The translations under genes and the position numbers were made by a program. The notes below the pieces were generated by a model that worked only from the letters and a program-made list of their open reading frames with translations, had not been told where the DNA came from and made no database searches. Source: Dictyostelium discoideum (taxonomy: Eukaryota). From it: a stretch of 64,000 nucleotides of DNA. Shown here piece after piece: positions 10,094-13,205 of the stretch (positions are counted from its first letter, which is position 1; each line of letters opens with the position of its first letter). The stretch spans positions 896,001 to 960,000 of the forward strand of contig CM000155.2 of NCBI GenBank assembly GCA_000004695.1, read 5' to 3'.

Positions 10094-12415
10094 TTATTTA
10101 TTTAATTTAATTTTATACATTTCATTTTTATCTTTATCTAAATAACCTTTTTTAAAATAATAATTTAAAATAAAAGTATCATTATATGAATTTGCAAATT
10201 TTAAATTATCATTTGTAATATTGAATAAACTTGGTTTATACTTTAAAAGTATATCAAATATTGGTATTGATTTGGAAAGAAAAGGTAATTTATAATAGTG
10301 GTATTGAAAAGGTGGTGATATATCAACATTTGGATGATTTATAAATATATATTCAATCATTGGATAATTATTCCAATAGCTAAAACCATCTGGAATTTTA
10401 TTTATATCATATTGATTAATGATATAGGAAATTAGTTCTTTCCTATTGGTCAATATTGAATAACCAAAAAGATATTCACATACTCTTTTACCAACTTTAT
10501 ATGCAATTGTAACTTTGTCAATAAAATCTTTAATTGATAATTTAATATATTCTTTATTTGTTGTATTGTTTATTAACTTTTTTAATAATGTCACACCGAT
10601 TGGGAGAATTTCAATTTTTGAAGATGGATTTTCAATTAAAAAAATTGGGAAATACTTTTTGAATTTTTCAATTTCATTAATATTAATTAGAAAATATAAT
10701 GTATATTTATTAATTTTCGAACAATTTATTAATGTTTCTAAAATGCTATCAAATGATTTATTCATTTCAAAAATAAATTCAAATGTAAATGTATTAAAAT
10801 CAATAATTTTATTAATTGAAAGTGAAGAATTCTTCATTATTAATACATAAAGTTTTGGTGATTTAATATGTAAATAGAATGCAGAGTGATATACTGAATG
10901 TTCTATTGAAATTAAATTATTTTTAATTTGATTTTTAATTTCAATTAATTCTGTTATTGTTATACCTTTAGTTTTAATTAATAGTTTAAATAAAAAATTA
11001 ATTATATTTTGATAAATTTGAGGTGGTGATGGTTGATTGTTGTTGTTGTTGTTATTGTTTATTTCATCTTTAATTGGGTTTAGAGTTAACCAAAAAATTA
11101 AATAATTTTTAATAGTTTCCAATTTATTATTTTCATTTAATATCAAATTTTCTAATTGATTATTATTAAATAAATTCCAAGTTTTACTAAATTCTTCTGA
11201 AAATGGATGTGAAAAAATATTAATATTTTCATTACAAATGATTGATTGAATTTTAATTAAATTAAATTCTCTTATTGATTCAAAAATTATTTTCAAAGAA
11301 TTTTTAATATCTAATGATACATTTGGATTAGATATATCAATTAATTTTTTAATATTTTCTGAATCATTTAATTTCAGACTTAAAGTAGAAAAGATTGGAA
11401 TGGAATTATTATTATTATTATTTTTATTATAATTAAAAATATAGTTATTATTATTATTATCATTATTATTATTATTATTATTATTATTATTATTATTATT
11501 ATTATTATTATTATTATTATTATTATTATTATTATTATTATTATTATTATTATTATTATTATTATTATTATTATTATTATTATTATTATTATTATTATTA
11601 TTATTATTATTATGATTATTATTATTGGTAGTAGAGTAAAAATAATTTTCTAAATCCTTATTTTCAAATGATATTAAATTCTTTTTTATTTTATTTCTAA
11701 ATTCTTTTAAAATAGATGTCACAATTCCATTTTTAGAATATTTTGAATGATTCAACCAATCAATTGTACTTTTATCATTTATAATAAGCAATTGATTACT
11801 TTTCATTGGTTCAATTGTTAGACTATTTAAAATTGGATTCCATTCAGATGGAAATCCAAATTTATTATATAATTTTATATCTAATGATTCTTTTAATTTT
11901 TTAATTGATTTTTCATATACTTCTTTATTATTGGTTATTTCGAATATTGAATTTCTAATTTTATTTAATAAAACTATATTCTTTTTCCAATTTTTCCATT
12001 TTATACTATTTAAGAAATTAATAATAAATTCAATGATATCTTCAATATTAATTTTATTATTTCTAAAATCAATTATTAAATTATCAATTTTATTTAATAT
12101 ACCAATTGTATTTAATCCTAAAAATCCATTATTATTTAAACCTTTAAAATTATCATCCTTTTCAATGAGTTCATAATATTTAAAATAATATAAACTATAT
12201 AATCTTGTTGAATTTTGTTTTTTAACTAATGATTTAATTATTTCTTTAATCTTTTCATATTCATTTTTATTTGAATTATTATTATTATTATTATTATTAT
12301 TATCATCATCATTATTACTATTATTATTATTATTATTATTATTATTATTATTATTATTATTATTATTATTATTATTGTTATTATATTGATTTATTAATTG
12401 ATTTAAATTATACAC
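10094..12415 (-). CDS. N/I-rich hypothetical protein, the 3' part of a larger frameshift-interrupted reading frame (see findings)
   Basis: 773-codon open frame with long (AAT)n poly-Asn tracts at 11461..11625 and 12290..12380. Its first codon in the ORF track is GTG, not ATG. The same frame stays open upstream to a TAG at 12488..12490, and no ATG occurs there. Confidence 0.4.
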   Translation of the reverse strand: MYNLNQLINQYNNNNNNNNNNNNNNNNNNNNNSNNDDDNNNNNNNNNSNKNEYEKIKEIIKSLVKKQNSTRLYSLYYFKYYELIEKDDNFKGLNNNGFLGLNTIGILNKIDNLIIDFRNNKINIEDIIEFIINFLNSIKWKNWKKNIVLLNKIRNSIFEITNNKEVYEKSIKKLKESLDIKLYNKFGFPSEWNPILNSLTIEPMKSNQLLIINDKSTIDWLNHSKYSKNGIVTSILKEFRNKIKKNLISFENKDLENYFYSTTNNNNHNNNNNNNNNNNNNNNNNNNNNNNNNNNNNNNNNNNNNNNNNNNNNNNNNNDNNNNNYIFNYNKNNNNNNSIPIFSTLSLKLNDSENIKKLIDISNPNVSLDIKNSLKIIFESIREFNLIKIQSIICNENINIFSHPFSEEFSKTWNLFNNNQLENLILNENNKLETIKNYLIFWLTLNPIKDEINNNNNNNNQPSPPQIYQNIINFLFKLLIKTKGITITELIEIKNQIKNNLISIEHSVYHSAFYLHIKSPKLYVLIMKNSSLSINKIIDFNTFTFEFIFEMNKSFDSILETLINCSKINKYTLYFLININEIEKFKKYFPIFLIENPSSKIEILPIGVTLLKKLINNTTNKEYIKLSIKDFIDKVTIAYKVGKRVCEYLFGYSILTNRKELISYIINQYDINKIPDGFSYWNNYPMIEYIFINHPNVDISPPFQYHYYKLPFLSKSIPIFDILLKYKPSLFNITNDNLKFANSYNDTFILNYYFKKGYLDKDKNEMYKIKLNK
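11461..11625. repeat. (ATT)n trinucleotide array of about 165 bp, encoding poly-Asn on the minus strand within gene 10094..12415
   Basis: Uninterrupted tattattatt... Similar arrays lie at 12290..12380, 15920..16010, 25503..25642 (AAT, 46 copies), 49105..49178 and 52812..52897 (the last is intronic, 55-140 nt upstream of the SR-gene 3' splice site). Confidence 0.9.
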
Positions 12416-12467
12416 TCTATTATTTGTTACTAAAATTTCAATATCATAATAATAAAAACCATATTGA

Positions 12468-13205
12468 TTAAATAATATATTTATTATCTAAAATATATGA
12501 TACCATATTATCTTTATCTTTATTAAATTCCAAACACCATTTTATTGAATTTTTTTTTATATTATTTGTAATTATTTTATTTTTATCATTATTATTATTA
12601 TTATCAATAACTTTATTATTTATATAATTAATTAATAAATTTAATGTTAAAGTTGAAGAGTATTTTATTGAATATTCAATATGATAAGATGTAATTTTAA
12701 AATTTATTATTGATTCTGAAAATAATATTTCTAATAATTGGTTATTATCGGATCTAACAAGAAACATAACATGATCATTTTCAAATTGAAATTGGTATTG
12801 ATTTATTAATAATTTAAAAACTATTAAATGAATGTTTTTAATTTTTGATTGTCCACCAACGATTTTAACAGACTTTATAAAATCTATAATTTCACTTTTT
12901 GTAACTTGTATGAATTGTTTTGTTTCTAATTTATATTTCAATAAATCTAGGCAATTGTTTTTTACCATCCAACCAAATGAATAAATATTTTCAAATTTAA
13001 TTCTATTTTCTGTATAATAATACGTATAGTTTTGAAACTCAATATCCATATTTAGCATTAAATCAAAAATTAATCCATTTAAATATTTGTTTCTAAAAAC
13101 TTTCCAAAATAGTATCTCCCAAATATCCATTGGTATAATTGATTTATTCATTGGTTGAACTATAGATTTATTACTTAGAATATTAATTCCATTTTGTTTT
13201 TCCAT
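12468..13205 (-). CDS. Hypothetical protein, N-terminal part. It is probably the 5' portion of the same gene as 10094..12415, shifted by one frame
   Basis: ATG at 13205, giving a 245-aa ORF MEKQNGINILSNKSIVQPMNKSIIPMDIWEILFWKVF... that ends at TAA 12468..12470. It overlaps by about 20 nt the open upstream extension of the next frame. Confidence 0.4.
   Translation of the reverse strand: MEKQNGINILSNKSIVQPMNKSIIPMDIWEILFWKVFRNKYLNGLIFDLMLNMDIEFQNYTYYYTENRIKFENIYSFGWMVKNNCLDLLKYKLETKQFIQVTKSEIIDFIKSVKIVGGQSKIKNIHLIVFKLLINQYQFQFENDHVMFLVRSDNNQLLEILFSESIINFKITSYHIEYSIKYSSTLTLNLLINYINNKVIDNNNNNDKNKIITNNIKKNSIKWCLEFNKDKDNMVSYILDNKYII

Follow-up and report, generated by a model that had tools for sequence, protein, structure and literature searches.

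Insertion and deletion (indel) errors of Sanger-era genome sequencing are known to make false frameshifts and false pseudogenes, and strain-specific unitary pseudogenes have also been described in Dictyostelium discoideum AX4, for example the tgr pseudogenes (10.1101/2025.10.22.684067, PMC12745789). The locus described here lies on the minus strand of a 64,000-nucleotide (nt) stretch of AX4 reference chromosome 6 (the window) and can be compared with both. It appears as two adjacent open reading frames (ORFs) of 245 and 797 codons, and comparison of assemblies demonstrated that these constitute one predicted intronless gene of 1037 codons. The break between them corresponds to two missing T's and is quite probably an error in the AX4 reference.

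As in the Sanger-era errors, an isolated small indel in A/T-only sequence splits an intact and constrained ORF, the lesion is missing from an independent near-identical assembly, other states contradicted by outgroups are found nearby, and ~1,900 discrepancies with the reference are known from AX4 lines (PMC3466296). Unlike those errors, the window lesion is not in a long homopolymer and comprises two separate single-base losses. As in the tgr pseudogenes, a lesion disrupts the frame in one strain while the orthologs elsewhere are intact, and the window gene likewise belongs to a small, fast-evolving and lineage-restricted family. However, the tgr pseudogenes carry internal stops and truncations, whereas the window gene shows neither further lesions nor relaxed constraint and is 100% identical to an intact allele save two bases.

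Reading frames and coding signal

The frames of the locus, all on the minus strand of the window, are as follows:

10094..13205, minus strand: whole gene as it stands in the window, 3112 nt
13205..12468, minus strand: ORF A, with ATG at 13205, 245 codons and stop TAA at 12470..12468
3' end of the 12468..13205 ORF, minus strand: last three residues of frame A (Y-I-I) and its stop, out-of-frame artefacts
10094..12487, minus strand: frame B, 797 open codons and a stop, equal to residues ~245-1037 of the intact protein
10094..12415, minus strand: listed second ORF, beginning with GTG, product of 773 amino acids (aa)
12468..12490, minus strand: overlap zone of the two frames, between TAG 12490..12488 and TAA 12470..12468

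All coordinates that a preliminary description of this DNA had given for the 245-codon ORF, its ATG and its TAA were reproduced, as were the GTG start of the second ORF, the extension of its frame up to TAG 12490..12488 and the lack of a nearby ATG; the peptide quoted there, IINILFNQYGFYYYDIEILVTNNRVYNLNQ, is correct. Frame B is offset by +1 relative to frame A, is bounded by this TAG upstream and by a stop at 10094 downstream, and overlaps frame A for 17 nt between both stop codons. Its first start-like codon is the GTG at 12415; there is no ATG near its 5' end, and the first one lies far downstream.

The A+T content of the gene region is ~85-90%, and at this composition a stop is expected with a probability of 0.11 per codon, giving a mean open run of 9 codons. 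Shuffling the sequence 500 times gave open runs of at most 116 codons, compared with the 245 and 797 codons observed, and both open frames were therefore taken as real coding signal. When the intact protein (see below) was searched against the window by tblastn, residues 1-242 matched 13205..12480 at 100%, and residues 245-527 and 602-1037 matched 12475..10097, also at 100%; the gap between the latter two segments is SEG-masked poly-asparagine (poly-Asn).

The poly-Asn tracts, encoded by (AAT)n at window 11400..11630 and 12270..12390 on the minus strand, range from 0 to >90 residues between species at equivalent positions, and the blocks adjoining them are conserved.

The lesion at the junction

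The syntenic locus in assembly GCA_054883475.1, hereafter L003, was found via a neighbouring 259-aa ORF (window 15015..15794), and it carries one intronless 1037-aa gene call at this place. The window and L003 differ in 110 of 20,815 alignment columns, corresponding to 99.47% identity. The new assemblies, L003 among them, are from Holland et al. (2025), who reported ten genomes from Nanopore and Illumina reads with the laboratory strain AX2-214 among them; according to these authors, AX2 and AX4 are 99.5% identical over a 104-kb locus (PMC12745789). The observed identity fits this value, from which we infer that L003 is most likely AX2-214. Two other ORFs of the window match AX4 proteins exactly, namely BCS1-B (XP_629907.1) and DDB_G0291920.

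Compared with this intact allele, the window lacks two bases:

12479, minus strand: first missing base, a single T where the intact allele has TT (AAAT[T]ATA)
12474..12475, minus strand: second missing base, TT where the intact allele has TTT (ATAT[T]TATTT)

On the coding strand, the window reads AAATATATTATTT at the junction, where every other genome examined has the equivalent of AAATTATATTTATTT. The window codons are GAT AAT AAA TAT ATT ATT TAA, and those of L003 are GAT AAT AAA TTA TAT TTA TTT AAT CAA (DNKLYLFNQ), within a stretch of the intact protein that reads ...SYILDNKLYLFNQYGFYYYDIEILVTNNR. The corresponding codons are GAT AAT GAA TTA TAT TTA TTT AAT CAA in an assembly of a divergent wild D. 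discoideum strain (L001, GCA_054859385.1) and GAA AAT AAA ATT TTT TTA TTT AAT CAA in a paralog (L002), and the longer state at the first missing-base site is common to both. Adding one T after 12479 and one T to the run at 12475..12474 gave a sequence of 3114 nt that is identical, base for base, to L003 5078..8191 on the minus strand, so that the repaired window gene is one intronless ORF of 1037 codons with one terminal stop. Over these 3114 nt, no further lesion was found in the window gene relative to the L003 allele. Two separate 1-nt losses, 5 nt apart, are needed because no consecutive 2-nt deletion converts the intact string into that of the window, as read by eye from the compared strings.

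An apparent 9-nt deletion paired with a 9-nt insertion, seen in the AAT repeat when the window was aligned with L003, was discarded as an alignment artefact in view of the exact reconstruction.

The break had previously been described as one-base, which does not agree with the two extra bases of the intact allele. The accompanying claim that a single base would fuse the frames is valid for removing one base, and adding two also works, but adding one does not, since frame B is offset by +1. A frameshift or strain polymorphism, or else a sequence miscall, had been named as the cause, in keeping with the finding that the window differs from the near-identical intact allele by two missing bases only.

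Orthologs, synteny and constraint

In a homology search with the fused sequence, only Dictyostelium proteins were matched. One of them, the 976-aa protein P0002, covers 97% of the fused query. P0001 (754 aa), the close counterpart in the wild D. discoideum assembly L001, reads MVSYILDNELYLFNQYGF, and in the part MVSYILDNELYLFNQYGFYYDIEIL it passes directly from window frame A into frame B.

The syntenic loci of D. cf. discoideum (L004), D. citrinum (two assemblies) and D. dimigraforme were reached via orthologs of the 259-aa neighbour; the last three loci are L005-L007. Single ORFs were found in L003 (1037 aa), L005 (984 aa), L006 (1007 aa) and L007 (1052 aa), and those of L005-L007 are intronless and have the same position and orientation as the window gene. 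In D. cf. discoideum, a 1030-aa call extends past the end of the locus, and a single tblastn segment keeps one frame over residues 223-275. Alignment of the orthologs shows a conserved junction peptide, NSIKWCLEFNKDKDNMVSYILDNKLYLFNQYGF..DIEILVTNNRVYNLNQ, which also aligns in P0002. The order of neighbours is shared by L003, L005, L006 and L007, where a TIM21 gene is followed by a 916-935 aa gene (a 922-aa CNDH2-domain call in L003), a ~500-aa gene, the target gene, an MJ1316-domain gene and an F-box-type gene. Across the group formed by D. discoideum, D. citrinum and D. dimigraforme, both the gene and its synteny are conserved.

The preliminary description had suggested a single gene of about 1030 codons and had proposed to inspect an independent assembly at the junction and to compare orthologs in other dictyostelids. 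The 99.5%-identical assembly has one intronless 1037-codon ORF there, and the syntenic dictyostelid orthologs are single genes of 984-1052 aa, so these relatives encode one continuous protein across the junction, as had been proposed. Since the wild assembly L001, the paralog L002 and the orthologs L004-L007 all read through, the intact state is ancestral and not an artefact of L003.

Between species, the ratio of nonsynonymous to synonymous substitution rates (dN/dS, NG86 method) lies at 0.19-0.30 in the N-terminal half (residues 1-240) and at 0.41-0.55 in the C-terminal half (residues 250-1037), values that indicate purifying selection on coding sequence in both. The AX branch carries 16 nonsynonymous and 9 synonymous changes, similar to the L001 branch and well below the neutral expectation. 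There is thus no nonsynonymous excess on this branch that would mark relaxed constraint, although a very recent lesion would give no such signal. An old pseudogene was ruled out by the dN/dS values and by the identity to the intact allele apart from two bases.

An intron could reconcile a correct AX4 sequence with a single protein, if a short spliceosomal intron joined the two frames. It had been stated that no GT...AG intron can be placed at the junction, which is true only inside the overlap; around it, 16 stop-free pairs of GT and AG sites less than 400 nt apart join the frames, for example 12611..12488 (124 nt) and 12535..12430 (106 nt). The annotators of L002 also placed an 81-nt intron at the homologous place. 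The donor consensus in Dictyostelium is GTAAGT-like, and the candidate donors (GTTATT, GTTTGG, GTATCA) depart from it. Moreover, every candidate would excise part of a stretch (NSIKWCLEFNKDKDNMVSYILDN...FNQYGF) that the orthologs conserve as coding sequence, the donor at 12611 is missing in L001, the L002 intron is in frame, stop-free and translates to a homologous peptide, and both the orthologs and L003 are intronless single ORFs. No credible intron was therefore left, and we consider splicing across the junction extremely improbable.

The intron annotated at L002 6716..6796, in the paralog ACTFIW_011659 (P0002), is probably an artefact of the gene model, as its 81 nt encode the peptide SMISYILENKIFLFNQYGFHNYYKYDLE, homologous to ortholog coding sequence; the true product would then be 27 residues longer. 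Because this sequence is in frame, stop-free and homologous, the paralog P0002 is continuous through the junction.

The two ORFs would also be explained by separate neighbouring genes or by programmed ribosomal frameshifting, and gene callers have split the L001 locus into products of 281 aa and 754 aa. However, frame B has no ATG near its 5' end, homology is continuous across the junction in eight other sequences, and the L001 split is due to a different 1-nt deficit. A programmed frameshift should be conserved, yet all eight relatives are in frame, including the 99.5%-identical genome. No sign of independent genes was seen, and the chance that either explanation holds appears minute.

The deficit in L001 lies at ~5941..5960 (equal to window 12557..12573), where this assembly reads ATT AAAAAAA TTC in place of ATA AAAAAAAA TTC in the window, ~70 nt upstream of the window lesion. 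Restoring one A in the A-run gives a clean ORF of 1017 codons. Either a real polymorphism or a homopolymer error of long-read sequencing could account for this deficit.

Origin of the missing bases

According to the reading that we prefer, the Sanger-era reference would have lost two single T's, 5 nt apart, on AX4 chromosome 6 through a local error of base calling or consensus, and this would shift the frame and give the apparent pair of 245 and 797 codons; the organism itself would make the full-length protein. Biologically, there is probably no feature at the junction. The reference error is favoured because the two-loss lesion stands in an otherwise identical gene, window-unique states occur nearby, the mutation rate is low, discrepancies with the reference are many, and the gene shows no decay.

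As to the neighbouring sequence, 50 substitutions separate the window from L003, and at about 41 of them the window has a state of its own that 3-4 outgroup assemblies contradict. The substitutions that side with L003 are 35 of 39 at 17259..17764, the single one at 8161, and 5 of 7 at 18428..18802; the dense clusters correspond to ~12241..12739 and ~13400..13777 in L003. For example, the window reads GAAAAAAAA where all others have GAGAGAGAG. A divergence of 9% over 250 bp is impossible between two derivatives of one isolate, so this part of the reference must contain erroneous sequence, and window 17259..17764 together with 18428..18802 looks like a low-quality patch in the AX4 reference.

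The rate of small indels in Dictyostelium is 4.9e-11 per site per generation (PMC7466956), so low that two nearby independent deletions in a laboratory lineage are very improbable. When AX4 lines were resequenced, 1917 candidate differences from the reference emerged, of which all but one (1916) were common to the lines; the authors attributed these to reference errors or stock differences (PMC3466296).

The rival explanation is a genuine loss of function, in which the AX3/AX4 lineage lost the two T's after splitting from NC4/AX2, so that the locus would be a unitary pseudogene of very recent origin, with a truncated product of 245 residues. The lesion is indeed present in the window and missing from a sister assembly that resembles a laboratory strain, and its site is outside long homopolymers and hence atypical of assembly-length ambiguity. 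It also falls in a region modelled with low confidence, probably a linker between poly-Asn tracts, and the independent frameshift nearby in L001 suggests that the gene may be dispensable. Against this, a genuine loss needs two separate 1-nt deletions at a distance of 5 nt while the rest of the 3.1 kb stayed unchanged, at a rate of ~5e-11 per site per generation; the same stretch of the reference holds dozens of states that only the window has and that outgroups contradict; the discrepancies with the reference in AX4 resequencing far outnumber true new mutations (PMC3466296); and no sign of relaxed constraint was seen. We regard such a loss as unlikely. A more elaborate form of it, in which the two-base deficit would be a real AX3/AX4 allele and the L001 frameshift would mark recurrent, very recent inactivation at the poly-Asn-flanked linker of a lineage-restricted alpha-helical gene from a small birth-and-death family, is likewise doubtful. 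All other explanations together carry a very small probability at most.

Several points weigh against an error in the reference. The site is isolated, with the nearest other difference between the window and L003 >900 nt away, and lies outside any obvious bad patch such as that at 17.3 kb. Over the ~33.7 kb compared, it is the only isolated pair of 1-nt indels in non-homopolymer sequence and the only one inside an ORF, and all other indels between the window and L003 sit in long homopolymers. The comparison rests on assembled sequences, and the lesion may be a real one of the AX3/AX4 lineage; L003 is a different stock, which shows the state of the parental lineage and not that of AX4. The gene can be lost, if the frameshift of L001 is real. 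Finally, the protein collection holds no AX4 protein for the locus, though the AX4 paralog DDB_G0287059 is present; this absence, which would also fit a genuine loss, tells us that the break was noticed in annotation but says nothing about its cause. An exact look-up of the 245-aa and 773-aa products found neither on record as a called product in any assembly, read-archive assemblies included.

The error that we favour agrees with one branch of the preliminary description, which had named a homopolymer miscall beside pseudogenisation. The sequence-error part is preferred to the pseudogene, but the runs concerned are very short (T vs TT, TT vs TTT) and no long homopolymer is involved.

The remaining differences between the window and L003 (window 14591..14597, 16879, 20914, 27164, 32119, 36901 and others) are changes in the length of long A or T homopolymers or substitutions adjacent to them, all of which are non-coding.

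Owing to the two missing bases, the protein sets derived from the reference seem to contain no model for this conserved chromosome 6 gene of 1037 codons, and users of the AX4 annotation, in proteomics, knock-out design or comparative genomics, would miss the gene or treat it as a pseudogene. The value of the observation is therefore one of curation, and the 2025 long-read AX2 assembly can be used for correcting such sites of the reference, including the corrupted patch at 17.26-17.76 kb. If the lesion is real, it would be one more genetic difference between AX2 and AX4, in a full-length 1037-aa protein. Under either cause, no new biological mechanism is implied.

Protein family and predicted structure

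In the homology searches run, the protein appears restricted to Dictyostelium, and it is predicted to be largely alpha-helical. No Pfam family reached its gathering score for any member of the family. For the intact paralog P0002, AlphaFold2 gave an all-helical but poor model from a shallow alignment of 7 sequences, with a mean predicted local distance difference test score (pLDDT) of 55.6 and a predicted template modelling score (pTM) of 0.36, and its better-modelled regions are ~70-190 and ~730-976. The region of the junction (~225-260 of the model) was predicted with low confidence, consistent with a linker between poly-Asn tracts. A Foldseek search of the model against the PDB gave no match at E <= 0.001, and the template modelling (TM) scores were <= 0.2, with only generic alpha-solenoids.

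The paralogs comprise DDB_G0287059 of AX4 (UniProt Q54KW7, an uncharacterized 840-aa protein) as well as P0002 (976 aa) and P0005 (989 aa), both from wild strains. They share with the window gene an N-terminal EILFWKV.RN motif, conserved central YYF.YYELI and C-terminal YPMIEYI..NHPNV blocks, an all-helical predicted architecture and the lack of a Pfam domain. They differ from it in being only 25-56% identical and in lying at other loci, and the neighbours in L002 are different.

Neighbouring features

The neighbour used for finding the syntenic loci (window 15015..15794, plus strand) is an intact 259-aa ORF with a gene call in the new assembly, and its orthologs carry an MJ1316 (PF04457) domain. 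No AX4 protein for this ORF was found in the protein collection, where its best match comes from D. cf. discoideum at 82% identity; the AX4 protein set may lack this gene too.

A G-rich intergenic element is located at window ~17320..17520, with a clean copy at L003 ~12300..12500. It has a (GA)n run and, after it, ...GGGGTGGTTAAGGATAGAAAGAGACACCATGTGAGTAATGGTACAAGTTGGTTGGATTTTTAAAG..., and for Dictyostelium intergenic DNA its conservation across D. discoideum, D. cf. discoideum, D. citrinum and D. dimigraforme is unusually high. An Rfam search of L003 12100..13400, the region of this element, gave no match. The element may act in regulation, belong to an exon missing from the annotation, or encode a non-coding RNA.

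The interval between the target gene and its MJ1316 and F-box neighbours (window 13206..15014) is a short spacer in AX4, the AX2-like assembly, D. citrinum and D. dimigraforme. In L004 (1966..10000) and L001 (1464..4081), several small genes lie there, including a Dicty_CAD-domain gene, a 'Coiled' PF05710 gene and ORFs of 100-240 aa, which represents local structural variation.

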